A stretch of 64,000 bases of DNA from Potamilus streckersoni (lineage: Eukaryota), in NCBI GenBank assembly GCA_016746295.1, contig JAEAOA010000900.1:2554807-2618806 (forward strand). The letters are read 5' to 3'. The notes below the pieces were generated by a model. It saw nothing but the letters and a program-made list of their open reading frames with translations. It did no database searches and was not told the origin of the DNA. A program made the position numbers and the translations under genes. Shown here piece after piece: positions 13,076 to 60,490 of this stretch (within the stretch, counting starts at the first letter, position 1; each line of letters opens with the position of its first letter).

Positions 13076-13524
13076 TGTCAGTGATTTGTAAGAGTAAGTG
13101 TGCTTTAGACTACATGGCCATATGGGTAAAAAGGAAAAATTGGCTAAAATCTTCATGACTAGAAACCTTCCAAATAAAGCATGTACAACTAGAAGATAAA
13201 AAAAGATAAACGGTAAAGAGATCTGACAAGATGGCTTTCACTTGATGTGATGTGTTTTACAATATGCTTGTAGTTTTTTGTAATTGAAAAAATTTAGACA
13301 ATACCAGGTTTTGCCAAGAAACACATGTGTTCATTTATTTGTCATTATACAATGTATAAAAGCATGATAAAATTTGCTGCTTGACTTCAGAGATTGTCCA
13401 ATATTGAATACTGACTGCACCTCTCCACCAAATATATTATTTTATGCCATCTAAAGAAGAAATCCAAAGAAGAAAGTAAATATGGTATATTTTGTTAAGT
13501 ACCTGGTATACTGTGGTAACTAAC

Positions 13525-13619
13525 CTGTCTTTCCCCTCAGAATCCACCAGAGTTTGATTAGCTTTCAATATAAGACCTGTTTCTGGGGTTAGGGTATGTT
13601 TCTTCTCTACCCGTACCAC
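13525..13619 (-). CDS. MVP: MVP exon: VVRVEKKHTLTPETGLILKANQTLVDSEGKD(R).
   Basis: The acceptor is tataatcttcag|GTG and the donor is GACAG|gttagt. Compare human [32 protein letters not shown]. Confidence 0.75.
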
Positions 13620-15508
13620 CTGAAGATTATAAATAGAATATTGATATCTGTGTCTATCCATAGACGAGATAAATTTTCCATTCAGCCATATATTCAAAGA
13701 TAAAGTGTGTGCACAAAGAAAACCATCCTCACAACAGATCAAATAACTGGTCATGTGAGCAAATTCAATGTGTATAATATATTTATATTTACTATATACT
13801 CATTTAATCTTACATGCTTGATCTGATGTCTGTTAGTACTGCTCAATATGTATTTTCCATATGACAGTTAAAAATTATCCATGTCATACACCCAGCCTGG
13901 AACTACTTGTACCACATGAAATATTCAATAATAATCTACCTTAAATATCAGAAATTATTTGCTGCTATACCTAATTTAAAATAATGTTGGTAAACGTTTT
14001 CATAAAAATGCAGTAATGACTTTTGTTTGGTACAATGACTCTTTGTCTGCTGTCTGCCATCATGGCCTGTGACAAAGATTTAATTTGTTGCTGGGGCCGG
14101 AAGGAGAAATATTTAAAGTAGCAATGAGGAGTTTTATGGAAATTTAAAAGTACTTATAGCCAAAAAAGTAGAGTTAGTTGCGGATGACAATAGTTTGGAT
14201 GGAATGTTTGAAAATGATTTCTTAGATGAGGTTGGTATGAAAAGTAACATCAAACATAGCATGAGAAAGTACTTTGCTACTATGACCAGAGATTTGAAAT
14301 CTTCTATTAAAAGTAAAAACATTAAATATTTAACTGTCTGGAAGTCATGTCCAATTTAGTGATTGGTTAGAAATGCCACCTCATTCCAAGAAATGGAATT
14401 TTTCAATATTACCCCTGCTGAAACTTATAATAATGCTCATCCTGTCACTTTATTGAAACTGGCTGGTCTGTACTATGAATCAGATAATCTTACTAGTTAC
14501 CAGAGTAAAAGACAGATATTTAACAGACAAGAACTATGACTACAGCATTTTAACATCAAATGAGTTTGCTACAAGCCACAAAGTGCTGAATTTTTGCCAC
14601 AATGATCTTAAAAAGGTTTAAGAAATCATCCAAATAAAGCTGACCAGTAACTAGAAACAAAGAAGAATTTTATGGAATTTTGGTCAACTTGGCATACAAC
14701 AACCCTAATGCTTTACTTAATAATCTGGTACCACAATATCAAATTATTTGTTTTCAGAGTCATGGATAGAAACAGACAACTGAAGTGGAGAGACATTACA
14801 CTAAAAAGTGACAAAAATGGGGATGAGTATATAGAAATAAATAAAAGATCAGCAAAACAAGGGAGAGTAACAAAAATCTACAAATTTTAATTCAAAGCAA
14901 TTCCAAAATAAATAATGTCCAGAAAGACACCCAGTTTTAGCTTAAAACATTTATGCTAGTCAAATGCCTTTATCCATTGCCACCCAGGAATCACATTGTC
15001 ACGATAGAACTGCTAACAGTTTGCTGTTCAAGTGTCAACCTGCCTATGTGAATAAATTGAAATTGATAATGAAAACCAGACCAAAAAAACTTTAGAATAA
15101 ACAGAAGGATAAACAAACTAAAGCGTTATAAAAACTTCAACTGAACAACAGAAACATCTAAACTTCCAAAATGTTCAACTGATGATCCAATTCCCAGCTG
15201 CAGTGCTGATGACACACAATGAGACATTCCATAAAGAAATTATCTAAAATTCATACAATAGCCGGTAAAACATTTCAATCTTCAGGAATTCAAAATATGG
15301 TCTTAGGAATTCTTTTATTGGGCCTTAAGTGGAAGAACTTTCAATTTGTCTTTTAATGTTGCTGGGCATTCAAATTCATTGAGTAAATCTGAAAATAAAA
15401 TTTATAAACATCTGCAACATAAATGTACACTGGCAACAGCATCTCTAATTAATTAAGACTGAATTTTTAAAAAGTACCATTATGATAAATATTTTACTAT
15501 TCACTCAC

Positions 15509-17135: not shown

Positions 17136-18264
17136 CTGAAAATAGATGTGTAATTCTGTGAAGTTATGCTGACTCCCGTCATCCACATCTACTGGACACA
17201 TACGATAGCAAGCCTTCTTTAAAACTTTGAAAGAAAAATACACAAGTTTTACCTGTGTAATCATGCCATCATGGAAACCAAAACTTCAGTCCCAATCTGA
17301 CCATGATATAAAACTCTGAAGCTGAGTTTGATACTGAATTTTCACATTTAACCAATCAAGCAATATTGGTAAAAAAAATACAAAATCCTTTGTCATTGGT
17401 TAAAATAAGATCTTGAGTTAAAACCTGGACTTCAAAGTTTTTAAGATTTGCAGGCCCTAAGCTTGAGATTTTTATCTGACCAATCATATTTTGCTTTTGA
17501 AAGTAACTTCTGGCAGGCTAGGAGAAATATTTAAACCTCAATCTACAGCTCAAGAGATTTACAGTATCCAGGCCAGATTTGGTGGGGAAATCTATCATTC
17601 TGGTTGCAATGAATATGTATAAAAACCAACATTCAGCAACTGAGGTGGAAATAGTTAACTGGAAGGAATGAAGGATTTCAAGTAATGTATCTCTGTGTCT
17701 AACTTCCTTGTAGGTAATCTGTAAGCATGATTTTCCTATGATTTAGTAACAAGAAGTTTCTAATAAAACTGTTTCATTATACACCAAAATAGGTGATTTT
17801 GTCTAACTGAAAAAGCTGGACAATTTAAAGACTAGGGACTGCATTTTGCATTTTACTGTAACATTAATGTCATCTTTAACATTTCCATGTGTAAAAGCTG
17901 ATAGAAAAATTTGTTTAAATTAAAGGTATTGCTGCTGTTCTCTGAAAGATCCAATTATCATCCCTAGTGTTAAGATTATAGATAATCTGCTGAAAATTTT
18001 GGCTATCTTTTGAAACAACTGCTGTTCTTTAAGTGGTCTAATTATTCTATAACAGCTGTTGCCATTGATTTTGTAGTTATAAGAGTAAAGACCTGCTCAA
18101 TTATTGACATTTTAAGATTTTACAGAAGTGAAAATTTTCACTTTGACAAAGGTATATGAAAAAGAGGATTGTCTGTGATGAAGTACGTTCACATATTTCA
18201 TATTAAGATTTATACAAATTGTTGAAGAATGTAGCTTTCCAGAATTAAACAAAAATTGCCATAC

Positions 18265-18492
18265 ACTGTAGGGAGTTGGCATATACATGAGAGGTCCCTC
18301 CAGCTGCCATCTGTCTCCAGCTTTTCGAGATACTCCATTCTCATCATCATGATCAAGGACAGCTTCTAGTTGTATTGCATGGTTAGCTCTCACTACTGGC
18401 AGTTTGAGGATAGCAGGGGAATAGTTGTTGGACTTTTTTCCAAAATCTGTGGCATTTTGTAAAAACTCCCCTGGATAGAGAGGGAATGGCTC
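18265..18492 (-). CDS. MVP: MVP exon, 76 codons: EPFPLYPGEFLQNATDF...ANHAIQLEAVLDHDDENGVSRKAGDRWQLEGPLMYMPTPYS.
   Basis: The acceptor is tgtctgtttcag|GAG and the donor is AGT|gtatgg. The exon aligns to human MVP DPFPLYPGEVLEKD...[37 protein letters not shown]. Confidence 0.85.
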
Positions 18493-18976
18493 CTGAAACA
18501 GACAAAAAGTTGTGTAGATTAGCAGTTCTCAGATTCAACTGAAATGTTTTACAACCTCCTATACAAGATAGTGTTATAAATGAAGAATCAGTTATCTCAA
18601 CATCTTAAGGGTCTTCTTCCTCAAAATTCAGTGCTCAAAGATACTGTAAATTCACATCCCTGTCATAAAAAGATTTTTCATTCAATATTGCTATCAGATG
18701 AAACTACATTTTTCCTGTCTCTTTCCTTCTGCAACAAATACAGAACTAGAGCTGATGGATGTATCTCTAAAGACCAAACTCGCTACAAGGAGAATTCAGG
18801 GGCCATAACTCCTATAAATGATATAAGGAATATTAGAAAGCCAACTCTTTAAAAGACTCAATATAAAGGTTGATGAATAATTTGGTTGAAATCAAATATT
18901 TCTAAAAATGGTTATGTCATGGAAACCAAAACATGGAGGAAAGGCTATATGGGGCCAGGACTGTTCAAAATAATAT

Positions 18977-22200: not shown

Positions 22201-23934
22201 TTCATTCCACACCAACTGGAAAAGATGTTGCAATGCACATTCATTCACAATATGACTCTAAATTTTAAGTTTAAGTAAACAAAAAACAGCAATTTTTATT
22301 GAAAGTGATGTGAAGCGTGTAACTTAGTTCAAAGTTCGATGTCCTGAGTTATGTGAGCATTAATATTGTTGTTGTGTACTAATAAATCTGCACTTGTATA
22401 TTTATTTTATTTCTTTTAGTGTATTTTTGTTTATGTAATTAAGCCTTAGGTAGGATAAGAAAATGAGTATACAATAAAAAGGTTAATACATTTGTATGCG
22501 AAAATACGAATTTGCTCTGTCAGATGGAAATACTGCACTCCTAAGGTTGTACAGTATCCTCAAAAAACATGTTCATATTTTACTATACAAATGCAGTAAT
22601 CTGTTCAAAGAAAACAAAACCCCAGCCTATTATCTTGAAGGAAAAGAAGAAGATATATTCTAGCTTAAAAGAAAATCCCAGGCTCCTCCCCACAAATAAT
22701 TTATACAGCTGGTACCTAAAATTAAAATTACCTAAAGAACTGATATTAAGAAATATAATGCAGATAAAGCTAATATTTACAACAGAAATTAATAAATCTA
22801 TAATGCATGTGCCTGTGATAATGTTTTAGACTTTCTGAATAAACATTATACAGGTAAGGTATTTACTACAATTTCATTTCTAAATGACTCCACTTTTTGA
22901 GCTGGTAGGGGCCATTGGACATTTTATATTCTTAGAAAAATTCAGGCAGACTCTAATAACAATATATCATCTCCCAATTGTGGAGAGATCACCAATGATG
23001 TGAACTGTTGCAAATATAATCCTGAAAATGACCTACAAAGAAAGGCTAAAAATGCTTGTGATACACACAAAAGGATAGTATGAAAGGCAACAAGTTACTG
23101 TGAAAGAACTGGTTTGATGATATGATGTGCACATTTTAATATAGAAAAGAAACATTTTTTTAATGGTTCATTTTTCTTCATTTTCATGCTAAAAATTAGG
23201 TCATTCACAATCCTAATTCAAAATTAAAACAGACCCAATTTTGCAAATCGACAAAAGTTTGCAAATGGTCTGTCATGATTGTCTACTAAAACACCAACAC
23301 TAAAACATGAAGCCTAGACAGCATGTCTGGAATGGAGCAGATTTCTGTCTTCATGTACAAGTCAATACACTCAATATATACTCATTTATATGTCAGGTCC
23401 AACTGCAAACTGCATAGACTCAGATCTACAGTTGCATGATGTGCCAGAAATTCTGGGTTTATGCAGCTTGTTAGTAGCCAGTAGAACAAACAATAAGATT
23501 CTGATCTACCAGCACACTGTGCAATGGTAGATCAGGGGGTTTTTTTGGTTTGCAGTTGGACCCAACTTATAAGCAAATATATAGGGTACAAATGCAGTCA
23601 GTAACAAAATACAACCAGACTAAATGGTGTATTCATTGCTCCAATTTTAGAAGCATGAATATCTCCAACTTTGATAGCAAAACAATAACCATAAATGTTC
23701 ATTTTCCTCATTTAATGATCTCCATCTTTAGATCCTCATCATTTCTACATATTTAACATATTTTGACTTGATATTTGCTATCCAGGTCCATTGCAATGAG
23801 AAACTATAGTCTAAGTAGCATCAGTGTGTGTTAAGTGTTTAATTTAGATTTTGTCAGTGACCCAAACAATTGGACACTTCATCAGAACCCTGAAAGTAAA
23901 GAAAGAAGACTTTTATAGTTGTTTTTTGACTGAA

Positions 23935-27380: not shown

Positions 27381-28787
27381 GATTTGAGATCTTCTATATA
27401 CGAGTCTTCTATATCACAGAGTCAGGCTTGTACTTATTTAAATACAGCTCTATCAATATGAAGGGATGCACTACCAACGCATGCACAGGGCTCAAAATCA
27501 GTGGTAGTGCGCTAGCCCAAGGCTAGTAGATTTCCTGTCAGACTAGTTACTTTAATAATGTTAATAGTCCGATGGCTAGTAAGTTTCCGTTTATCAAAAG
27601 ACAGCATTTGTTTACACCATTCCTTATAAAGACTTGACTTGCAGATGTCCTGTAGAATCAAAGCAGTGACCATTTTAAACACAGCATAAAATATTAGCAT
27701 GAGAAGATAAAGTTAATATCTGCCTCGGAAAGGGTGCATTTTTATAAAAAGAAGCCATCTGATTTTGTGCATTTCGCTTAACAGCACCAATTTTGGTCCT
27801 GTCATTAACCAACGGAAGTTTGGTAATTGATCCCAATTAATCTTATAATGAATTAAATGAAAAATGATGTGGTATCACACTTTATTCACTCGACCACAGT
27901 AATAAACTACAGAGCGGTATACCATGCAAAAAAACATGGTAAAAACTGTTAAAAGAAATTAATATTTATTACAGTTACTTTTTTGACACATCCTTTCAAT
28001 ACAACTACTTTCTCTATGATCATGAGAACAGATTTTATATTTTGTCCCTTACAATAATGAACAAATAAATGAATACACATGGAGACATCCAAGCAGAATG
28101 CATTTGTTGGGATTTTAAATCTCTTGAGTATGGGCATCTAAGATTTGAAAATTTTTCACCTTATTATTAATTTGAACAATACACTGAGGTCCAATTAATT
28201 AGGAACAAATTACCAAATTTTAGCTAGTACTGTGTGTGTGAGACCATAATTGGAGCTGTTAAATACAATGTGTAGAGTCGGAGGGCTTCATTTGACGGGA
28301 ACACACCTTTTCTAAGCTGACACTAACATTATCTTTTGATGCTAATATTTTATAACATTATTTCCAATAGCCACTGCTTTGATCTGCTAAAGTCAAATTT
28401 TTATTAGGGAGAGGCCATTCAATTAGCAATAAACAATAAAATACACAAAACACTTAATTGATAATAAAAAGAAAGAAACTAACCTGGTGTTATTATAATT
28501 TATTTCTATTCTATCATCATGAGTAATTTATTAAAGAAAAAAAATCGATGAACTACCTATATCACATGCATGATGATGTAGTGTATACACCCATACTGTA
28601 ATGTGCATCACTTATGTCAGATAATACGCAATACATTTTTACAATTGATGTGAATATCGAAAAAACATATCATTATTTGGTTGCACTCCAAGGTTTGAAT
28701 ATGTTATCAGACTGAAAATTGGATCCAAGAAAATCACAAATGAGAGAGAATTAGTAAGGAGAAACATCTTGGAACAGCTTTGCTGCA

Positions 28788-30959: not shown

Positions 30960-31275
30960 CTTTAAAACAGTGTGTGTGATTTGGATTTTTAATACAGCTT
31001 TAAAATATGTTCAGTCATATCACTACACTATCTGCAGTGTGACAGTTTATAGTGATGTTTAGAACTTGGGCAATATGCCGCAGACATGTAGCATTATGTC
31101 CTGCACAGTCACATTATTCTGACACCAGGCTAACCAGTCCTAACATTGACCTCTTAATGCTGAATGCCAAGTGAGACAGCTGCAAGTATCATTTTTTAAA
31201 AAGTCTTTGGTATGACTAGGTTGGGGTTAAAACCTGTGACCTCCTGCATCCAAGACTGATGCTCTAACCACTTAG
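30960..31275 (-). mobile_element. SINE family 1 copy.
   Basis: About 85-90% identical to 23935-24262. Confidence 0.8.
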
Positions 31276-31299
31276 GCCACTGGAGAGGTAGAAAATATG

Positions 31300-31465
31300 T
31301 TATTCTTCAAAACTAATTTTCCTTTGGGTCACTATGACCATGAATCCCAAGTGAGACAGCTGCAATTACCATTTTTTAAAAAGTCTTTAGTATGACTAGG
31401 TTGGGGTTAAAACCTGTGACCTCCTGCATCCAATACAGATGCTCTAACCACTTAGTCCACTGGAG
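31300..31465 (-). mobile_element. Tandem partial second copy of the SINE family 1 head region.
   Basis: A unit of about 180 bp is repeated head-to-tail with 31150-31300. Each copy ends in aatatgttattcttcaaaactaattttcctttgggtcac. Confidence 0.7.
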
Positions 31466-33789
31466 CAGTAGACAATATGTTATTCTTCAAAACTAATTTT
31501 CCTTTGGGTCACAATGACTGTGACCCTCAAATCAAAAGATTTCTTCAATACCAGAAGTGCAAGCCCAACACAAACTTTGGTGAAAAGACTAAAGTTATTA
31601 TGCAAAAATGTTTTTTTTTCTTTAAATGTTTTCAATCACAATGACCTTGACATTCAACTTTTTGACCCAAAATCAATAGACTTCTTTCTTACCACAAAGT
31701 GAAAAGATACCCAAAGTTTGGTTCAGATATTAATTATTAAAACTGGGCATTTAAAAACAAATATGTATTTTTTCTGTGTTGCTTAAGACTCAGTCAAATA
31801 AACAATTTAATAATGCCATGTCTTGATAGAATTATCAATTTCAACAGATGCATTTATGTGTTAGATATACAGTCTGCTTGTTATGACCATATCTAGACAT
31901 ATGCAAGGATTACTCATCTTGAATAAAAATATAACATTTAAAAATTGGATATAACTATCATTTGCTCCCCCAAGATATTCAATAAATTTCTGTCTGTACA
32001 CATATTACCATTTACAAACTTAAATTATACCTTTTTATAAATACTTTTAAATGCATTGTTTGCTCATTTTTTAATATTTAAAGAATGCAGACTCTGATAA
32101 AGATTGCTGATAGATGATCTACTTAACACATCATTGAGGTATTCAAGCAGTGTCCCTAACAACTGTTTGAATAAATGAGCATACAAATTTCCATCCCAGA
32201 GTTTTATTATTGTACTGTATTACTTCCCATCGTCACTCAACATCGCATTTTCAAAAACTGTGTTCTGCTATACAATTCTTATAGAACAGCCTTATAGACA
32301 ATTAAATATTCATTACAGTTTTCAAAGTCAAGTAAACATTAGTAAACAATAAGTATGATACATATGCAATTTAGTGTTGAAGAAAACTACCATCCACATG
32401 CATTTCCCACCACCCGCTGGGTTGGAAGTCTTTTCTTCTGATTTTTTTTTCTATCTCATTTTAGATTCCTAGACAGTTATGTAGTGGTAAAGTTAGAGAA
32501 AACAAAAGTTCATTCAACTCAGCATTGTGAATAGCTTACATAATTTTCATAATTAACATCTTAAAATATAGATTCAATCAATGAACATATTTGTGCACAA
32601 ATATTTCAACACTGTTTGTTTTACTTTACTCATATCATTACCCACTTATTTGATACATGATGAGAAAGACTAAATTGCATACATGCAATCTGCCAGGATG
32701 GTCCTAGAATTAAGGAAGAATACTTTTGTTTTACACAGCACTGAGCAGTAGCTATAACAAGTACCATCTACTTGGACAATTTGTATCACAAAAGGCATTG
32801 AACCTTTTCCTCTGAAGTTGTTCCAATTATTTCATGCTTAATTTCCTCAGAAATTTTGGTAAAGGCCCTACAATTGACAATCTAAATGATATGTTGTATT
32901 TAGGAAATTATTAGGAAATTGTTGTATTTCACAGTTTTTATCTTAATACATTAACCCCTGGGGATTTTTGTTGTTTTCATCTGAAATGCAAGTAGGAAAC
33001 ACATTTTGAGAGATTTTTCTGAATATATCCTAATACATTGGCCTCCAAGAGATTTTTGGTTAACCTAATGACTAGTTGTGTTAGAAACATTATTTTTCAT
33101 TGGCTATTTTGCCCATGCATGATCAGAAGGGTAAAAGTTGGAGTTTTTTTTAGCCTAACAGACCCATCATTTTCATATCAAGACTACTCTTTTTTCCAAA
33201 TGCCCATCTTATCCTACTTTTTGCAAAGGTTTACCAATCTGTGTGCAGTTCAAACTGTTCTGTCTAAGATCTGAGACCAAAAACCTTAAAATCCGAACAC
33301 AAAATCAGATTCTGACATGTGATAAATTTAGGGTGGAAAAAACTCAGGTCTAAAAATTGTTTTCACTCTGTATATGTAGTGCAACTAGAACATCCAAATT
33401 ATTTTGGAATCAGCTACATCTGTTTACCTTTCTATAATACTACCCACTTTAATGTATCATAGATGATACTGACGCTAGAGCTTGGAAGTAAGCTACTACC
33501 TCCTGCCACGTAAATGTGGCATTAGGGATTAATGTGTTAACTTTATAAAACTTGAATACGAGACTTAGGATCCTGAATCAGTTACATCCCTTTTTTAATT
33601 TTTTTTCTCCCAAACTTTTTTTTCTCCCCCAAATCAATAAAATTGGTTATGGAAAAACAAGTAGGGTCAGTTGGTAATCATTAACTAAAAATACTTTTTT
33701 ATTTGGTCTAACCACTAAAGACATTCAAAGCATATGTTCCACATCTATCTATGTGAGTTGCTTTTATCATTAAATTTTTGTTGTTGTTG

Positions 33790-33995: not shown

Positions 33996-36900
33996 CCCGA
34001 TTTTATCATTAGAATCGATTAAAACAATAAAATTACATATATAACAGTATCCTTTGAATATGCAGGTACTCTTGACATAAAACATCATATAGAAAGGTAG
34101 ACTAACACTGGTTGTCATGGTAATGGCAAGCATTTCTAAAATACTTGTAATGATAAAAAATGGACTTTATTTTCTTCCATGAAAATTATAAATTTATTTC
34201 AGTCTATAAATTAAAGTTTTTAAAATTATTTTAATGTGCCAGCTTTCAGAGTACACATGATAGTTGAGATTTATATACTATAAGAATAATCTTATCAGTA
34301 AAAAATTAAGTTAACTTAAAATTGCTTTTACTTTATATACTGCATGGGGATACCATTTGTAAGCATGGAATTCCTCCAAAAATATGGATAATGAAGGAAA
34401 ATACAACAATACATTTAGCAACTTTAGTTTGACCAATGTAGTAAACTATGGGTAATCATGAAAGCAAATATAAAAATATCAGAGTTCACTGATAATAATT
34501 TCACAAAAGTAGTTGGAAGAGGCAAATAAATAAAGAATTGTCAAAAACTGCAATCAATACCAATCTTTCTGAACTCCAGTATTGTGAATTAGATCCCATA
34601 TGGTCCTAAAAATTATATCATAAATTTGAAAGTATATAGTTCCAAATGAATATGATTGGTGTTCTGAATGAATTCTTGAATGTGCTGATGTAACAACAGC
34701 CTGGAATAGTGCCGATGTACTACATCTTGATGTATCACAATGACATAATCCAAAATGTCTCTAAATGAATTTACAATAATCCCAAAATAGTGACTTAGTC
34801 TGAAATTATTAATGAGCACTTTGTAATTCCAAAGAATAATTTAAATAAACCGACTCAAAGTAAATCTGAACACAACTAAAAGACTATTTTCACTAGTCAG
34901 ATGTTAAAGCAGGAATGTATGATTGTAATATAAATATCCATAATATAAAACAGAAGTCACAGAGGACCAGGATGACGGTCATCTTAATGGAAGCTTCCAT
35001 CAAACTGTACACTAAGCTCATTTCTGGACTCCTCTAGGGTCAGAATCAGGGCTGCATCTAGAACTCAAAACCAATAAAACAAATTTACCCATAAATAATA
35101 CTGCTAATCTTGATACATAATCCATATTCATAGAAAAAAATTAGCTAATGTTTAAACAAAAAAAATTAGTTAAGCCCAAACTCCAAGTCCCAATTCTGGA
35201 CATAGGTCAATCAAACAATACAAATTAAATATACATAACATAGTCAACTTTACTGTTATAATTTCTGGAACACTATTTGAATGTGCTTTACTTCTTGCCC
35301 TATCTAGTCAGAGTGTGTCAAATATGTGCAGTCTGTGCAACAGGAGCAACTTTTGGTTCTTTACACCTGTAAAAATCCCCAATCAATATTCTGATTTCAA
35401 GAAGTGTTACTTATTGTCTTCATTAAAGTTCCCATCTCATACAATATATTAAAGAAACTAATAAGGAAATTGAAAAGTATTTCCACCATTTCTAGATGGG
35501 CCTTCAAATCAGATATTTGGACCTAAACTGCAGTCAATCCTACCCATATGGAGCTAGAATTTGTAGACTAATGATGCTGGAAATCTTGAACATCTATCTA
35601 TCTATCCTTCTTCTATGAAAGCTGTCTCCTCTTCAGCTGCTGCAGTGTTGGTGGACAAAAAAATAATTTAAAAATTTTTTTTTTTTAGACTTTTGCAACA
35701 ACTTTATGGAAATTATTTCCATATGTGACATGAAGAGAGTAGTATTTATACCCGAGGTGACATTTTATCTGTACCTAAAATTTATTTTCTGAGTAGAGAA
35801 GAACTTACTTCACAAGACATATTTTATCTGTAGATAAAATGTATTTCTTGAGAGTTTAAAATCTTTACTATATTTGCATTTTTACATCTTGCCGAATGTG
35901 TGAAGCTAAAATGACTCTCATGATGTTTATAAGTAATTCAGTTCAAATAAAAACTGCATGAATTATGTCATTTAAGTTCACTGAAATAACTGACATGTCT
36001 TTCTTTCATCAGTTATCAAGGAGTGCATAATTTAGTTTATCTCTGTGTGTATCAGTACTTTTGTGCACACCCAAGAAAGCTGAAAATAAACCAGCTTTGA
36101 AAGTAAGCCTACCTTGAAGAAATGCCATACTATTCCTATGAGACTGTGCTCTAGAAAGCACACCTATTGCAAAAACAATCCCTAATATATTTCAATATTA
36201 AATGTCTTTTTAACATATGGAGAAGCTTATATCTTTGTAATAGGAAGAGAATATTAACTACATGTGATATTTAATTGTAAAACCATGCATCATTTATGAC
36301 AAAACATATTCTTCATCAATTTGGGATTGAAAATATGATTTTAAAATTCTTTATGAAGATTTATTATGTAGAGGCATTAGATTAGATGCACAGACTCGGA
36401 AACTCTTAATTACGCATATTTGGATGCAATTTTTTTTATCTGAGACGCAGAAAATTACCCACACAGGAGTCCTCCATATGTACATTTATGTTGCAAAGAG
36501 GAAAGTTTTTTTGCAAAATAAATATGTTCTAATCACTATGAAAACTGAAGCAATTCTTTTATTTTAGTTTATTGCTGACTTGTTTGATCAGAGGTGGCCG
36601 GCTTGCTTTGATGAAGGTGCATGTGTTATTGAAGGCACCACTAAAGGCTCCCTTTGAAAAACCAAACTAATACCTGTTTGTTATTGCTGAGACAACATCA
36701 AATAATTGTAGAACATTGAGACAATTTTTTAAAAATTTGCTTAGTATATCTCGGTGCTTCAGAGGTAATAAGTTTTCTCTGATGTTGCAGTAAAACTTTT
36801 TTTTTTTAAAAATTGCTGTGTGGTTGACTGTAGTCATTTCACATTTCTGACCTAAGAGGTGGTCGATTGCAGCTAGTCAGTTGTATGGCTATTTTGATTA

Positions 36901-38269
36901 TATTACAGCATACAGTATTACGGCCAGATATCATCATAAGCGGATAATGATATAACAATTCAATGTTATGGTGGTTTGTCAATATGAAATAAAGGATGTG
37001 TTTATGTAACAATTGATTTCAGTGCATTTTTCTTTCCAAATTTGCAGTTTCCTGTCAGGTTCCTTTGAATTTTTCCACTTCAAACTCAATACTGTATTAT
37101 ACCTTTCTTATCAGCCAAAAATGTTGTCGTCAAAAATATCGCCAGATGGTATATTTTGTTGCCAACATGTAAATAAAATCGCAATTTCGGACACTGGCAA
37201 AGCCCATCGTGATCACTGTTTATGATTTCATTTCCGGTTGTTGCCATATAAATATCACCTGCAAACTCTAAATCAAGAGACTTGCATAAAATGATGTTTG
37301 TAAATTTTGACAAGTATTTTGAAGTTAAATGAAAAAAGGATGAAGATTTCAATGAGATTCAGAAATGTGCTAAAGTTGCTAGCACTGATAGTTCGGCATC
37401 AACATTACCCAAGTGTAAGAAAGTATGTGATGCCTGGCTTAGTCAGACTGTGATTTTTGCTGGTGAAATTGGAATGTTTGCTGGTGGGACTCTTATTTTT
37501 ACCAAATTAGGAGTCTTGGACTCCTAGTTTTAAAATCCTAGCGAGACCTCTGACAGAGAATACTTCTACTGTCTACCATTAGTTTTCCCTAAACAAAAAA
37601 TACAAATCCAAAATGAGCTGCCAATGAACATACTTGAAATCAAATGAACAAATATAAATAGAAATGATTAATAAAATCTTGATGTCTATTTCAAAATGTT
37701 CAGGCTCTCTCTCTTTTTCTTTCTCCATGTTGCACCCATGTTGGCTTAGTGGCACAAATGGCTGTCTTTTATTTAGCCTGCTAAACCCCTGCTGGTCCTG
37801 ATGGAAAACTGGTAAGGTTGATTTTACTATGCTGCATACGTAAATTCCACTGGGTTCCAAAGTACAGAACAGGTCAGTGCTGGTTAAAATATATGTAAAT
37901 ATGGTTACTTTTCCATTTGAGATTTTTTCTACACTAGATGCCAACATTTGTCCATCTTCATCATATGATTCCCTCAAGGATGAGGAATCAAGATTTCTTT
38001 TCTACTCTTGGTCTGAGAATGAGACAAAACTGTTGACTGACACTTCTACTTCTGCCCTTCCTATCATAAATCTTATGTCCTTCCTATTGCTACCTTAATG
38101 CCTATACTCTTGACCATGCTCCACACATTACTTAATAGTCAAGTGTGACTGTCGATAGATAATTCCTGCATGACATAAATTAGTTAATTTTACCTTTGTT
38201 TGGAGATGTTCACATGAAAGTTCACCGAATTACAGTTGCTGAGCTGAATGAACTGTTTAAATTGAGAAC

Positions 38270-39850
38270 TGGTCATTCAGTACCCATGTCGTTTTGTACC
38301 CATGTCGTTTTGTACCCAAAGCAATGGTTGTTTCATACCTAGTACTGGTTGTTTCGTACCCAAGATCCTGGTCGTTTTGTACTCAATACTATAGTTTCAA
38401 ATGTTAAAATCAGTCATTAAGCAAAAATGAATAAATTAGAAAATTTATTCAGTAGTTCTCATGGTGGTATACATTATTATTAATTGTCCCTGCTCTTACT
38501 CTCTTTTGTTTGTTAGAATTGACATATGCTCCACTCTTTATTTTTCGTTGTCCAGAAGAAAAACAAAAAAAACATTAAAAAAATGCAGGGGAGAATATTC
38601 TCAGTGTGGGAAGAATACCAGAATGATGTTATCTCCTCCGCAAAATTACTGCAGCAGCACATACGGTCCAACAACTGATTGACAAGGCAAATTAACTGTA
38701 TTATTAGATGATGAATTTTATATTTGAAAACAGAACTGCATAATGTTATTGTTTTCTACATGAATGTAATAAAACTCAGGAATGTACAATTTAATTTAAA
38801 TGTTTTATTCAGGAAAATATATATGCCATAGTACATGGGATGCTGTATTATAAATGTTTCAATATTGGCAGAATCAAAACATACATGCATATCTTCGATG
38901 ATTTAAATACTTAAATACATCATTTTTAAAACAAAGAAGTAAATATATCTAAAATGCAGTGCCAAGCTAAATCTCTTTCTCCGCGTGATTATTTATGTGC
39001 GTTATATTTAGGATGATACCAAAAAAAATCAGATTATGCCAAAAAATGAAAAATATTTTTCGCTAGCCATGAAAAATTATTATTATTTAAAGCAGAGAGA
39101 ATTTCAATTATGCCACTAATTTGTTAGTGTCTTGAGATCAGTGAACATGTCTAAAACTTTGCATAAGTATGCTAATGCAGCCAACAGTCTACCAAAAAAC
39201 TGCTTGGCAGTCTGTTTATTATATCAAGTTCAACACCTTTAAAAGCTGGTGACAAAAATTGAAATTAACACCAGTATTGGTCCTTGTAGAACAGAATCTT
39301 AATCAAGCAACACTGTTTTATCTGCATTCAACACCATCAACCCCATTATTAAAAAATTGCAGAATTTCTAGTTGCTTTGAGAGGATTTTATTTTTTTCAG
39401 TCACATTAGACATTACTAAACAATACCAAGAAGTAGGATAATGTTTGTTAATTTGAATGATAGAAAAAAATTGATTTATTCATTCATTCAAGCCTGGCCA
39501 ACATTTTCTTTTAATTTTTTATGGCAGCAGGAACATTTGTCAATTCATTTTAATACATATATACTATTATACAGTGAAAACAAGACAATTATTGTAATTA
39601 TTTGTGTTAGTTCAATTTATTGCCCAGATTAGGCCTAGAGAGGGAGCAGTAAATATGACAGTAATGTGTATCTGACCTTGCAAATTAATGGGTACGAAAT
39701 GACAAGCACCTTGGGTACAAAACGACCAGGACTTCAGGTACGAGATGACTAGCACCTTGGGTACGAAACGACCAGCACATTGGGTATGAAATGACCAGCA
39801 CCTTGGGTATGAAACAACCAATTTCCACTGGTTATGAAACGATCTGGGTA
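38270..39850. mobile_element. Foldback-like element. Its termini are inverted arrays of 16-22-bp tandem repeats (ctggtcgttt(c/t)gtacc units) and its interior is AT-rich.
   Basis: The left array, 38270-38400, is catgtcgttttgtacc / ctggttgtttcgtacc... The right array, 39690-39850, carries the reverse-complement units ggtacgaaacgaccag... Confidence 0.55.
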
Positions 39851-39859
39851 CAGAATGAC

Positions 39860-39943
39860 CTAGACCAACAAGTAGGTCTCTGCTTTTTTTTTTATCTGAC
39901 AGCTGTCAGATAAAAAAAAGCAGAGACCTACTTGTTGGTCTAG
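39860..39943. repeat. Near-perfect 84-bp palindrome or hairpin: ctagaccaacaagtaggtctctgc(T)10atctgacag|ctgtcagat(A)8gcagagacctacttgttggtctag.
   Basis: I read both arms directly. The only difference between them is T10 versus A8. Confidence 0.9.
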
Positions 39944-42780
39944 GAACAACCATGAGCCGTTTAAATTTTGGGACTACACTTGGTTTGTTTCTATCTAGTC
40001 TGACAAAATGTTCTCTGCCTTTTATTTTTTTCTTCTTCAGTTTTTTAACATTACTGGTGGCGGTCAGGAAAAACAATGTGAAAAATTCCTTGCTAAAAGA
40101 CCAACAAATAAATTGCTGCTTTTCTTCCTGTGACATTTTTATTAATATGAAAAGTTAAATGCGGAGATCCACTTGTCAGTCTAATTTCTGTCAATACTTT
40201 AACCACAGGAGTCTGCTGTTTTATCAATAAAGCACGACGACATTTCTGACAATATGAAATCACCTTAACTGTATTATAATACTGTTAAGATGATTTCATG
40301 TCAGAAATGTCTTGCTTTCTTGATATAACTACAGACTCCTGTGGTTTATCTTACTAATCATGTCGATAAAATATGAACTATGCATATTTCCAAAGATACA
40401 CATAATCAGCTTTCCCTGGCTGGATTGGTACTTCGACTCCTTAAGTTCGAGGCTCTTAAAAAATCCGCAGCTCCAAACCCCCGGACCCCATTCCTCACTT
40501 TTAATTACGACAAGAAGCATGAACACTGTCATATTTCTCTTTCACTTTATCAAATGCACAAACTTAAATGAAATTAAATTCTTGACATACCATGTCTAGG
40601 ACATGAACGAACTGGAGAGGTGCTATTCCAATAATGTCATCCATTTGTTGTTTTTTTTTTTCTCCTTTCGTTTCCTGGCGAATGCTTACAACTGGTCTAA
40701 ACTGATCCAGTCGACAAAACACGGAACGCTTGTCAAAGTAAATACAAATCGTACTAAACACAACACTTTATTTGGTGCCACAAGAGAATTTGAACGAACA
40801 TGACGTCAATGTAATGTACATGCCGTGAACGTGACGCACTAGAAGAAAACTTCTGAATCATTTCTGTATTTATAAAGACTTACAAGTTGCAATGTAGGTT
40901 GAATATCGGTAATTAAACCAATTCAATAATAATACAATATATTTTTCTCTGGAGAGACGTTTTATAAAACCCGTGCGATAGACCTTGGTGTCTGAAGCGG
41001 ACAAGTAATTTTTCAAATAAATTTACCTAATTCAGAGAAAAGGAAGGCCATTGGTGTTTAATTTAAAAAAAAAAGACAAAAAGCACCCCCCACCTTCCCC
41101 AAAATAAAACAAACCTACTTACCCCAAACGAAACTCAAATGCCTCGTAAAACACAAGGTTCGTACCAAACAGGATATCATATAATCTGGGAGAGGTATAT
41201 TTGAGAAACTGCTCAGGTATTCCCCACCCACCCTCATATCGCTAAAGAAGCGGAAACGTTTCCAAGAATATGGCCTAAATTTTATTTACAGTTGGATAGC
41301 TAACAGTATGCGCAGGAAACACTTCAGTTGCAGGACACTTTATATTTTTCATACATTTTTTTTTCTACTAAAATGTTTCATGTGAAATGTTTGATATGTA
41401 ATAGTCTTAATTTATTCTCGTCTGTGTGTTTGTATCTCTTATCACGATTATGCTTGGTAGCGATTAGTGTTTGACAATTTACTTTTCGTTGTCTTATCCA
41501 CCTTGTCCCACAAGTTGGAGTTCTGTTACTGATTCCTCGTATCTCTCCATTGTGGTTCTTTCCATTTGTATATGTGTATATTTTACTTTTATATGTACTT
41601 GTTTGCTTGGTTTATTGTTTTGTTTGTTTTATTGTGAGGGGGAAGAGTGTGTCCTCTGAAAGACAGTTGTACAATTGACATGGCATCCAATAAAATTATG
41701 ACATTTTAATTTCACGACTTCATTTATAGAGGGGGAAACAAATATTTTTTGGAACTAATCTTTCTCGTGACCCGTGTTTCAGTACAGATATACTGGATCT
41801 AGTTTTAATCAACTATTTATTATAAACCGTATGTACTAGCTTGTATTTGGAACACAATTGCAAACCGAACGACCCATATCAGCCGTAGCATAAAGCGGAT
41901 CCAGCTCTACTTATTTTATTAGAAGTAATCAGTAGAACAGACAACATAATATACTGACCTGCCGGCACATTTGCGACGGCTGATCAGGGTCTGCCTTGTC
42001 TGTTGTTCACATTTGTATTGATATTAGTTACACCTCCTAAAAATATGCATATTTAAAAAAGAAGTCTCATGTTAGCACAAGAAAATCAAAATAACGTTTG
42101 AAAACATGCTAAATATATTTATTTGATTTAAACCACTTCTTAGCCATCTTCGTTAGACAAGGTTCCGATATGATAACCCTATCTATAGATAGGCTTATCT
42201 GTGTTTTGGGCCTGTGAATTCCAAGCTATCGCATCCAATCATAATTAACTTTTTCAAGTTTGAAGACTGTTCCTACACGATCGCGACAAGGGGAGCACAC
42301 GACTCGAATTGACTCTTTAAAAAAGCAATTTTCCACTGCCGGTACGTATTTGTGTAAATGCACTTCACTCAAATACACATATAATGGCTTTTCTCTGGTA
42401 TGTAATCATGCTTTCAATACAAAGTATCCTTTTTAATTTAATTACCTCCACCATTTTTCGGCCAATTTACAATGCACTGCTGTTACAAGCTATTGGTAAA
42501 TTGTCCTTACATAACATGAGAGGCAACTCATTAAATCCAATAGATGACATAGTACTACAATATTTGTTCGATCCGCCAAGGTGTAGATAAAGCTATCATA
42601 CCGAAACCTTGGCTATCGAAGATGCCTCGTGGCGTGTGTCGAAGGGGCGATTGTGCCATAACCAATAAATAAACAAAACACCTGAACTTGTAAAGTTTGG
42701 AAGCGGACAAGTAAAGTATCAGTCCGAGAATAATTAATCTAGTCTTTAAACATGCACAAACAACTACCATTAAAATTGCT

Positions 42781-54180: not shown

Positions 54181-54407
54181 ACATGCTGCCACAGTGGTAT
54201 TCTTAGAATAAACGGATATTTCTGTTCTTGCGTGAAAAGTTGTTAAAAGAAACCTAAGAATGTAATTCGAACCATTATTACTTTTACTGAGTATCTCTGA
54301 AAATGTTTTTAAGTGCGATAATTTATGGAATGCAATATGGTGTGAAATTTGAGAGACTGGTCGTCCTGTTTTAATTTACAGAATTTACAAAATATCATTA
54401 ATCAATA

Positions 54408-54408
54408 A

Positions 54409-54470
<62 letters not shown>
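54408..54470. repeat. (AAAT)n microsatellite that starts 8 nt into ARL intron 1.
   Basis: Read directly. It begins immediately after the donor gtaagc. Confidence 0.95.
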
Positions 54471-54471
<1 letters not shown>

Positions 54472-54477
54472 GCTTAC

Positions 54478-54661
54478 CATCCCATATGTCAAAGCAGGTA
54501 TCTCCAATTGGGACAGATTTAACGCAAAATCCCACGGTGGGTGCAGGATCCATTACAGTGTCTCTGGGATTTGCATTTGGGTGAAAGCAGCTAACAAATT
54601 TAGTTTTCCCGGCCCCATCCAAACCTAAGACGAGAACCCTTCTATTAGAAGAACATTTTTG
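54478..54661 (-). CDS. ARF-like small GTPase, exon with P-loop and switch I: QKCSSNRRVLVLGLDGAGKTKFVSCFHPNANPRDTVMDPAPTVGFCVKSVPIGDTCFDIWD. The 5' boundary is uncertain and the initiator Met is probably in an upstream exon.
   Basis: GLDGAGKT is a P-loop. PTVGF is the switch I Thr region. FDIWD then meets the donor GATG|gtaagc. Two candidate acceptors lie at 54662-54663 and 54683-54684. Upstream of this exon there is a TAA in frame before any ATG. The ORF-track 'M' at 54691 is a TTG codon. Confidence 0.75.
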
Positions 54662-55395
54662 CTGCAAAGAGAAGAGACGAAAGCTAAACAAAAAGTAGTT
54701 GCAGTTTTATCGGAGGTTGTTTATCATGAGAGCATACTTACCCGCACTGCAGTTGTAATATACCAGAACTATCATAGTTTTAAGTTTCATGTCAAATAGA
54801 TAAAGGAACTGGAACTTTCACCATCCATATAATTAATGTTGACAATGTTCAGCTTTGTGCCTCATGACTAACTACTACAAAGTTAACTGGTGCCTCATCC
54901 TGTTGTCAACAAGTAGTCAACAGTAGCGTAGCAAGCCATTCTATGCCACCACCCTTCAAACAATTATGGAGCCCCCTCCCAAAATAAATAAGTTGTTTGA
55001 TGAGACATTTGAGCAATAATATGCAATATTAATATGCAATATTATAATCAGCAGTTGTATTAAATGACAGTCATTCATATATTGCACAGTGAATTTTAAA
55101 TACTGAATTTGTTCTGTGCGGTTGAAACTAATTAATTAGGTGTAGTCTCGATTATTTGTCCTATATTATTTTATGTAATGCCTTTTCTTTTATACTTTCT
55201 TTTCTTTTGCCATTCCCGGTTGGCATTTTTTTTTCTGGCAAAATTGGTGAAATCAATTTCAAATTTCTTTTAAAAATAGTATCTTTGAGGTTCATGATGA
55301 AAACTCAATCACTGAATTTCAATGTTACCCTTAAAATACTCAAGAATATGTCAAAAGACAACGACAAATAAGATGACAACTGAAAAATACTCCAA

Positions 55396-57119: not shown

Positions 57120-57565
<446 letters not shown>

Positions 57566-58689: not shown

Positions 58690-60006
58690 CTAGTTATACT
58701 GGTGTTTTAAAAGAGACTTTGTATATCTTAGGTATTGTTCAAAGAACCTTTAATTCCCTTTATTTTGATGTATGATTGATGGGTGTAATATGGGTTAGAG
58801 AGTATACAGCTTGACCTTACTGCAGATGTGCACCTTTCAAAAAAGTGCTAGCTCTACTTGCTCATTTTCACTTCTCGAACTTCAGAGGTAAATTGTTAAA
58901 AAAAGAGCCGATAACTTTTTTTTACATTTTATGTATTTGGTAATTCAGTCATTGCACTTTTAGAAGCTGGTATTATCTAGTTTGGCAAAATTCATTTTCC
59001 ATATTTTAATAGCTGCCAAGAATAGTGTACTTTAGACAAATTTTGGTTGATTTTTGGAGCACAAGGGAGCAGTCATTTTAGTTCGCAGTGTCATAAGATC
59101 ATTTAAAATTTCCAAAAGTACAATATCCAAAGAAATTTCATCCACATTACATGAAAGTAGTATAAAGGTATGCCAACATTCTCTCCACTGTGCATGTTTA
59201 AAATGCAAACAACTTCACCTTACATACATCACTCTCTCAAAAGTACATAATAACTGGTGAGCGCCACCTTATTACGGAGAATAATGAGCCATTCATGTCC
59301 AATGGTTTCATATCACTCATGGGTGGTTCTGCCAATCCTATCCCTATTAAACTTTGAAGGGACACATGAGCTTCTCAGTGTCTTTTATTATCAGGTAGTT
59401 TGCTCTTTTTCTGACAAGTACCTGTTTGTTATTTTGTTAAAAATGGGGTCCTTGTGAGAAAATGGAGATCACATGAAATATCCGCTCTTATCCTAATCCA
59501 TAAAACACATTTGGCTGGTCATTTAGTGACCAATAAGACTTACCACAAGATCCTGAATAATTCTTATTCGACAAAATTTAAAAATGATGTTTGTAAATAT
59601 TTTAGATTGCACTTGTCAAACGGTAGGGAAACCCAATCAAAATATACCTAAGATTCATCTGCAGTCTATTCCTGCATTTGACGAACCACTTAGCAGAAGA
59701 ATGGTAGATTTTGTCAGTCCCTTGCCTAAGACCAAATCAGCCATCCAATGCTTGTTGACCATAATGTGTACGTTTAAAAGTTTCCTAGAGGCAACTCATT
59801 GGAGAAATATTAAAACTAAAAAGGAATTAAACGTTCTGATGACGTTTCTTTACTCAATTTGGCCTACCCAACTCTGTCAATCTTATCAAAGGTCAAAATT
59901 TATGTCTGGAATTTTCCAGCAAGTTATGCAAGAATCAGGCATTCAGCCATATAACTATTCGACCTATCACACTGAAAACCAAGGAGCTTTCGATTTTTTT
60001 TTTTAA
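58690..60006 (+). mobile_element. Degenerate Ty3/gypsy-type integrase remnant: an HHCC zinc-finger region plus a decayed DDE core.
   Basis: The ORFs at 59054-59260 read ...HESSIKVCQHSLHCACLKCKQ.... The ORF at 59584-60006 reads FDEPLSRRMVDFVSPLPKTKSAIQCLLTIMCTFKSFLEATHW...YHTENQGAFD. This matches the integrase core pattern IDFVGPLP...YLLV.VD.FTK.....P....YHPQ.DGQ.ER. There is no RT or LTR upstream, and a SINE truncates it at 60200. Confidence 0.6.
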
Positions 60007-60199: not shown

Positions 60200-60490
60200 T
60201 GAGACTGCTCAAGTGGTCTAGTGGTTAGAGCGTCCGCCTCAAATGCGAGAGGTCAAACCCTGGCCGAGTCACACCTAAGACTTATAAAAATGGTGCTAAC
60301 ATAAAAATGGTACTAACAGTTGTCTCGCTAGGAGCTTAGCATTATGGGATTAGTGTTATAAATGGTCGACCTGGTGATTGGGTGAGACATGATGCTACAT
60401 GTTTGTGGGATGATGTGCTAAACATCTCTTTAAACTGACACATGGCAGACATCGCAGCGATATGACTGAAAATGTTTTACAGTTATATTA
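60200..60490 (+). mobile_element. SINE family 1 copy in plus orientation, followed by a (CA)n(CG)n tail.
   Basis: The head is tggtctagtggttagagcgtccgcc... It truncates the integrase-like ORF upstream. Confidence 0.8.

Follow-up and report, generated by a model that had tools for sequence, protein, structure and literature searches.

A probable foldback-like transposon relic adjoined by a plausible palindromic MITE in an AT-rich animal-type genome

The window, by which we mean the whole 64-kb stretch of DNA that was analysed, has an overall GC content of 0.344 (range 30-41%) and contains dozens of long dinucleotide microsatellites. No open reading frame longer than 141 amino acids is present anywhere in these 64 kb, and a search for tRNAs and for Rfam families at curated thresholds returned no match in the window. 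The observed/expected ratio of CpG is 0.43 over the whole window, with TpG and CpA in excess, indicating that the genome is CpG-methylated. The host DNA is eukaryotic and belongs to an AT-rich, CpG-depleted genome of animal type. Protein-coding sequence was recognized in the following places:

13440-13799, minus strand: exon region of the major vault protein (MVP) gene, with a weak match to the Pfam Vault repeat
18115-18528, minus strand: exon of the MVP gene, E = 1.5e-19 to MVP chains in the PDB
54401-54706, minus strand: exon of an ARF-like small GTPase, N-terminal part of the G-domain, with best PDB matches to the ARL family (E about 1e-5)

From the MVP exons, the host can be placed among MVP-bearing eukaryotes and is probably an invertebrate animal. 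The locus described below is most likely intergenic or intronic DNA holding a small nest of inverted-repeat elements.

Repeats of other kinds are scattered over the window. At 31161-31518, a 180-bp unit is present in two tandem copies that are 93% identical, and a tRNA-like (SINE-head-like) stretch can be recognized in it by eye, with no Rfam or ARAGORN match. An inverted pair of 46 nt (57365-57410 and 60208-60253, 87%) also carries tRNA-like sequence and encloses a degenerate integrase-like open reading frame at 59557-60003, whose match to the Pfam rve family (E = 0.005) falls below the cut-off; the features between 57365 and 60253 are probably retroelement and SINE debris among long GA, AT and CA microsatellites. 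Candidate inverted-repeat elements are seen at 23375-23583 (36-nt arms, 81%, 137 bp apart) and at 27686-28353 (48-nt arms, 81%, 572 bp apart), together with a candidate hairpin with 33-nt arms at 35760-35842. These further pairs of terminal inverted repeats (TIRs) elsewhere in the window indicate that inverted-repeat elements are common in the host genome.

The structure of main interest is built from 14 copies of one 16-bp motif, with the ancestral form GGTACGAAACGACCAG, arranged in two opposed arrays. Its parts are:

38271-39860, no strand assigned: whole putative foldback-like non-autonomous element, 1590 bp, with bounds from blastn and MAFFT
38269-38386, minus strand: left TIR of 6 units, spaced by 16, 16, 23, 21 and 23 bp
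38387-39688, no strand assigned: AT-rich, non-coding middle domain of 1.3 kb
39689-39862, plus strand: right TIR of 8 units, spaced by 23 bp (five times), 25 bp and 16 bp

With up to three mismatches allowed, GGTACGAAACGACCAG occurs 12 times in the 64-kb window where 0.2 occurrences are expected, a number reached in none of 100 shuffles. Six units start on the minus strand at 38269, 38285, 38301, 38324, 38345 and 38368, and six on the plus strand at 39691, 39714, 39737, 39760, 39783 and 39806; two more degenerate units, starting at 39831 and 39847, belong to the right array. The units thus span 38269-38383 on the left and 39691-39862 on the right, and no copy of the motif lies outside the two arrays in the 64 kb. 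An earlier reading, made from the sequence alone, had described two arrays in opposite orientation 1.3 kb apart. This is borne out by all 14 units and by repeat finding, blastn and MAFFT, each of which finds the arrays mutually inverted. The same sequence-only reading was right about the presence of the right array and placed its end at about 39850, some bases short of the actual end at 39860-39862.

The two arrays share more than the motif itself. The outermost unit of both arms is the variant GGTCATTC[A/T]GTACCCA, the next unit begins 16 bp inward, a GGTTGTTTCATACC unit then follows in both arms, and the spacing beyond settles at about 23 bp. Motifs are therefore 16 bp apart at the outer tips and 21-25 bp apart further inward, and the periods reported by TRF over the arrays are 16, 23 and 46. 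The arms differ in that the left one has an extra, perfect 16-bp duplication at 38285/38301 and the right one is richer in 23-bp units (consensus 23-mer GGTACGAAACGACCAGCACCTTG). The arms are homologous position by position, beyond merely sharing one unit. Joined by a 4-nt linker, they pair with a folding energy of -78 kcal/mol (z = -11.7).

The ends of the structure are sharp. The inverted homology found by blastn stops precisely at 38271 and 39860, and the termini mirror each other, with GGTCATTC at 38271 and GAATGACC at 39860. When the left end was aligned in MAFFT with the reverse-complemented right end, similarity began at GGTCATTC, and the outer flanks and the interior were unrelated. 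The middle domain has no open reading frame longer than 73 amino acids, no Pfam match among the frames it does have and no blastn match elsewhere in the window. A second copy of the large element was likewise missing from the 64-kb window. A degenerate pattern of two motif units found 0 matches in metagenome, prokaryote-genome and viral contigs, collections that do not cover the host and are uninformative on copy number.

The sequence-only reading had suggested looking for target-site duplications (TSDs) on the two sides of the element. We scanned terminus offsets of a few bases either way and lengths of 2-12 bp under five models of the excision of P1, the palindrome adjoining the right end, and found no TSD of at least 6 bp with at most one mismatch, whether P1 was removed or kept. 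The best 8-mer matches at 5 of 8 positions (TGAGAACT versus TAGGAACA, with P1 removed as a TA insertion) and the 9-mer at 3 of 9. A TSD could have been erased by decay. A direct repeat of 16 nt, ATGAACTGTTTAAATT at 38248-38263 and ATGAGCCGTTTAAATT at 39952-39967 (14 of 16 identical), brackets the large element together with P1; its empirical p is about 0.03-0.04, and we set it aside as probably due to chance.

The units carry the marks of considerable age. Of their 28 CpG positions, 10 are still CpG and 17 have become TG or CA, and only 17 of 168 non-CpG positions differ from the consensus. The identity between the arms is about 72-77% by blastn and MAFFT. This CpG decay and the divergence of the arms argue that the large element has long been inactive, and decay so heavy implies that it is not active at present. 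It has the appearance of a long-dead relic in a methylated genome.

Foldback elements have long TIRs with internal tandem repeats and a non-coding middle, and often lack an autonomous copy (PMC4079207, PMC3169594). The term describes a type of structure, and several superfamilies, among them Mutator/Phantom and P, have evolved it (PMC4079207, PMC3169594), so that an assignment requires the length of the TSD or a transposase. Compared with this type, the element at 38271-39860 has TIRs made of internal tandem repeats at both termini (6 and 8 units) and a middle domain free of transposase, and it shows no convincing flanking TSD, which measures 8-10 bp in FB, Tetris and Tm1. The foldback-like structure named by the sequence-only reading is accordingly retained as a description of architecture, namely inverted tandem-repeat arrays around a non-coding middle.

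Among known systems, FB of Drosophila, Tetris of D. virilis and Tm1-ML and Tm1-HH of Meloidogyne (Mutator/Phantom) also have TIRs composed of a short tandem motif. Like them, the large element has a non-coding middle, a total length of about 1-1.6 kb and TIRs that are imperfectly identical (PMC3169594, PMC4079207). The number of units is unequal at its two ends (6 versus 8), as is typical of foldback-like TIRs, and Tm1 varies similarly, with 1-9 units of about 14 bp (PMC3169594). The differences lie in the TSD (9 bp in Tm1 and 8-10 bp in Tetris, none detectable here), in the identity of the arms (about 72-77% versus about 93% in Tm1) and in the length of the TIRs (116 and 172 bp versus 0.5-1.7 kb in Tetris and Galileo). 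The terminal unit resembles Motif C of Tm1 through a shared ATTCAGTA, a likeness that we rejected on finding that 250 of 2910 random windows (8.6%) score as well. With this likeness not significant and a 9-bp TSD matching at only 3 of 9 positions, membership of Mutator/Phantom in the manner of Tm1 finds no support.

Galileo, of the P superfamily, differs in its TIRs, which measure about 1 kb and contain long internal repeats, and in its TSD of 7 bp. It has no sequence similarity to the large element. What the two may share, as do IR/DR-type elements, is a repeated short motif in both TIRs that could plausibly provide multiple transposase-binding sites (PMC3688188). Tandem repeats within long TIRs carry additional sites of this kind; in Galileo, binding of the THAP domain to sites within the long TIRs has been demonstrated, and foldback-like TIRs in general have been proposed to hold transposase-binding sites likewise (PMC3688188).

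The right terminus is followed at once by a group of hairpins:

39859-39944, no strand assigned: P1, near-perfect palindrome of 86 bp, centred on GACAG/CTGTC
39995-40066, no strand assigned: P1c, partial decayed relative of P1, left arm 17/24, right end uncertain
40099-40181, no strand assigned: P1b, decayed full-length sibling of P1, left arm 17/24 and right arm 18/24, flanked by AA and TA
40202-40345, no strand assigned: P2, separate imperfect palindrome of 144 bp, flanked by TTA (40199-40201) and TTA (40346-40348)

P1 is perfect except for a run of T10 facing one of A8, so that its arms, ends included, measure 43 and 41 nt; the near-perfect palindrome with these runs and this centre had been noticed before, and its full span is 39859-39944. 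A core of 78 bp (39863-39940, arms of 39 and 37 nt) is palindromic through the centre, and as single-stranded DNA P1 folds at -44.2 kcal/mol (z = -15). It had been placed just outside the right array, which is correct in that the two adjoin and incorrect in that P1 overlaps the right terminus of the large element by 2 nt. Taking P1 out of the sequence joins GAATGACC directly to TAGGAACAACC on the right flank of the large element, which places P1 in a TA immediately outside the terminus. TA dinucleotides at 39861-39862 and 39941-39942 flank the core, and they are ambiguous as a TSD because the TA pair is itself part of the palindrome. Directly to the right of P1, GGAACAACCAT (39943-39953) resembles the core GAAACAACCAT of the array units; this is part of a further unit outside the terminus, or else a chance likeness.

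In size and design P1 recalls Made1, an 80-bp palindromic MITE derived from mariner that consists of two 37-bp TIRs (PMC1784062). Made1-type MITEs (Tc1/mariner-derived, with TA as target) are elements of about 80 bp consisting of two long TIRs with a short spacer. P1 agrees with them in that its core of about 80 bp is nearly all taken up by two TIRs of about 37-41 bp and in that it folds into a very stable hairpin; it also has the ambiguous TA pair on its two sides (PMC1784062). It differs from Made1 in that the sequences have no similarity and that only 2-3 local copies of the P1 type were seen. A search with the P1 arm gave 0 matches in metagenome, prokaryote-genome and viral contigs, which again do not cover the host and are uninformative on copy number. 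P1 is plausibly a palindromic MITE, Made1-like in size and shape, as the sequence-only reading had offered among its options.

The relatives of P1 just downstream are absent from the earlier reading. They emerged when 24 nt of the P1 arm, chosen to exclude the T-run, were compared with 128,000 positions of the window. The three best matches other than P1 itself were at 40161 (minus, 18/24), 39995 (plus, 17/24) and 40096 (plus, 17/24), corresponding to the right arm of P1b, to P1c and to the left arm of P1b, all within 330 bp, and no copy of the P1 type was found in the other 63 kb of the window. Both arms of P1b are significant (0 of 2000 shuffles each). P1b lies 154 bp from P1 and adjoins no transposon end. 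Counted by hand over the 24 nt, the distances are 7 from P1 to the left arm of P1b, 6 from P1 to its right arm and 10 between the two P1b arms, which puts P1 on a branch of about 1.5 nt and each P1b arm on one of 4.5-5.5 nt. The position of P1 near the inferred ancestor of the family suggests a young copy to which a conserved source gave rise recently; a copy of equal age with simply homogenised arms would look different. The clustering of P1-type copies fits local duplication at least as well as it fits independent insertions; local hopping would be an alternative to duplication.

P2 folds at -51 kcal/mol (z = -14), and its relatedness to P1, when tested, was not significant. PIF/Harbinger (Tourist-like) MITEs typically duplicate 3 bp of the form TWA. 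On the strength of its flanks, P2 is a candidate Tourist-like MITE of PIF/Harbinger type.

Taken globally, we consider it probable that 38271-39860 is the relic of a non-autonomous, foldback-like cut-and-paste DNA transposon, later joined by the palindromic, MITE-like P1. Any assignment to a superfamily and the past mobility of the large element would be read from its architecture, since neither a TSD of at least 6 bp nor a second copy was found. These same two gaps would also suit an origin of the arrays as separate array-bearing repeats lying head to head, such as satellite-carrying Helentrons or HINEs, or as a single short tandem array duplicated locally in inverted orientation; moreover, the succession of right array and palindrome loosely recalls the HINE layout, in which an array is followed by a 3' palindrome (PMC7492417). 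We regard such an origin as quite unlikely. Both arrays have the same variant end unit, the same spacing of 16 and then 23 bp and a sharply defined, mirrored terminus, and the inverted homology is absent from the interior and the outer flanks, unlike in a segmental inverted duplication. The outward likeness to HINE, DINE-1 and Cg_HINE, the Helentron-associated elements in which a tandem array precedes a palindrome (PMC7492417), does not extend to their organization: HINE repeats are single arrays of longer monomers, set between distinct left and right modules with subTIRs of 11-12 bp and a short stem-loop at the 3' end. The present locus has two inverted arrays with one terminus sequence in common, no palindrome adjoins the left array, and the palindrome on the right is a separate repeat with its own sibling, P1b, which is not beside an array. 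The HINE/Helentron reading was rejected on this architecture, that is, on the two inverted arrays with a common terminus and the missing palindrome beside the left one.

The origin of P1 calls for a similar weighing. Its exact abutment on a transposon terminus, the lack of a spacer at its centre, the identity of its arms apart from the T-run and the confinement of P1-like sequences to 330 bp could all be explained if P1 had been made in situ, either during replication or repair, through template switching or the 'correction' of a quasi-palindrome, or by the off-centre opening of a hairpin formed by transposase on the flank, leaving a giant P-nucleotide tract. Hairpin formation on the flanking DNA is documented for transposases of MULE, hAT and Transib (PMC5499845), and either hairpin opening or a template switch could give the observed order of terminus, inverted copy and original flank. 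In addition, the right end of P1c with 10 nt of its flank resembles the right end of P1 and its flank (p about 0.015), and this likeness, combined with the local confinement, hints at some local duplication. Set against this, P1b, which lies away from any transposon end, is palindromic over its full length and shares the sequence and size of P1, from which it follows that the palindromic form predates P1. The P1 arm also lies nearer the inferred ancestor than either arm of P1b, by a factor of about 3-4, which a homogenised old copy would not give, and the large element is too decayed for recent cutting. Formation of P1 in place is thus unlikely, and a hairpin created by aberrant transposition, which the sequence-only reading had entertained, is disfavoured by the decayed sibling 154 bp away with no transposon end beside it. 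To the most specific form of this idea, in which P1 would be the footprint of transposase chemistry (a flank hairpin of hAT, MULE, Transib or RAG type opened far off-centre and rejoined, with a 41-nt 'giant P-nucleotide' tract), and to the alternative in which P1, P1b, P1c and P2 would be a young MITE-derived small-RNA cluster, we give very little credence.

An artefact of assembly or sequencing deserves mention for P1 because chimeric fold-back reads can yield spacer-less perfect palindromes and because the difference between T10 and A8 is of the kind seen as error in homopolymers. It is highly unlikely to be the explanation, since the palindrome is only 86 bp long, the unique sequences on its two sides differ from each other, and diverged relatives of the same length, the sibling P1b among them, lie nearby. 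A further rival is a transcribed cluster of MITE-derived hairpin RNAs (miRNA or endo-siRNA) in which selection would keep the P1 stem perfect. Three or four hairpins of 80-146 nt do lie within 500 bp, P1 and P2 have sub-threshold Rfam matches to several miRNA precursor models, and miRNA genes are known to have arisen from Made1 MITEs (PMC1784062). At gathering thresholds, however, Rfam finds nothing on these hairpins. The best sub-threshold scores are 53 bits against 113 for MIR807 on P2 and 45 against 74 for mir-2797 on P1; the five strongest relaxed matches reach 37-53 bits against thresholds of 68-117, and the remainder fall further below. The families matched are unrelated ones from plants, insects and primates, as any long hairpin produces, and the decay of P1b and P1c shows that the cluster is not conserved. 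We therefore consider this reading most improbable.

Following the preferred reading, a relic transposon later joined by a MITE-like palindrome, each end would be a TIR built wholly from the 16-bp motif, at 16 bp spacing at the tip and 23 bp inward. On the precedent of Galileo, Sleeping Beauty and other elements, the motifs would have offered several putative sites at which a trans-supplied transposase could bind, and this transposase would pair both ends for excision. The element would then have remained inactive for a long time. Afterwards, P1, a member of a small palindromic, MITE-like family, would have inserted at a TA immediately outside the right terminus, where P1b and P1c, presumed older members of the family, and the unrelated hairpin P2 occupy the next 500 bp.

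The suggestion that the pair of structures marks a hotspot of recombination or fragility gains no support from these data. The arrays are only about 75% complementary and lie 1.3 kb apart; from what is generally known of palindrome instability, fragility driven by cruciforms is not expected in such a case. By the standards of eukaryotic palindrome instability, a palindrome of 86 bp is also short. The foldback-like element and the hairpin MITE are most likely ordinary, well-known kinds of genomic repeat, and the practical value of the analysis is to keep the locus from being mistaken for a fragile site or a novel structure. Its importance beyond repeat annotation is small, and it opens no new question. 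If the large element is a transposon relic, it adds one more foldback-like TIR architecture in an animal genome, with the 16-bp GGTACGAAACGACCAG as a candidate transposase-binding motif, and the young, Made1-like family of palindromic MITEs could mark recent DNA-transposon activity in the species.
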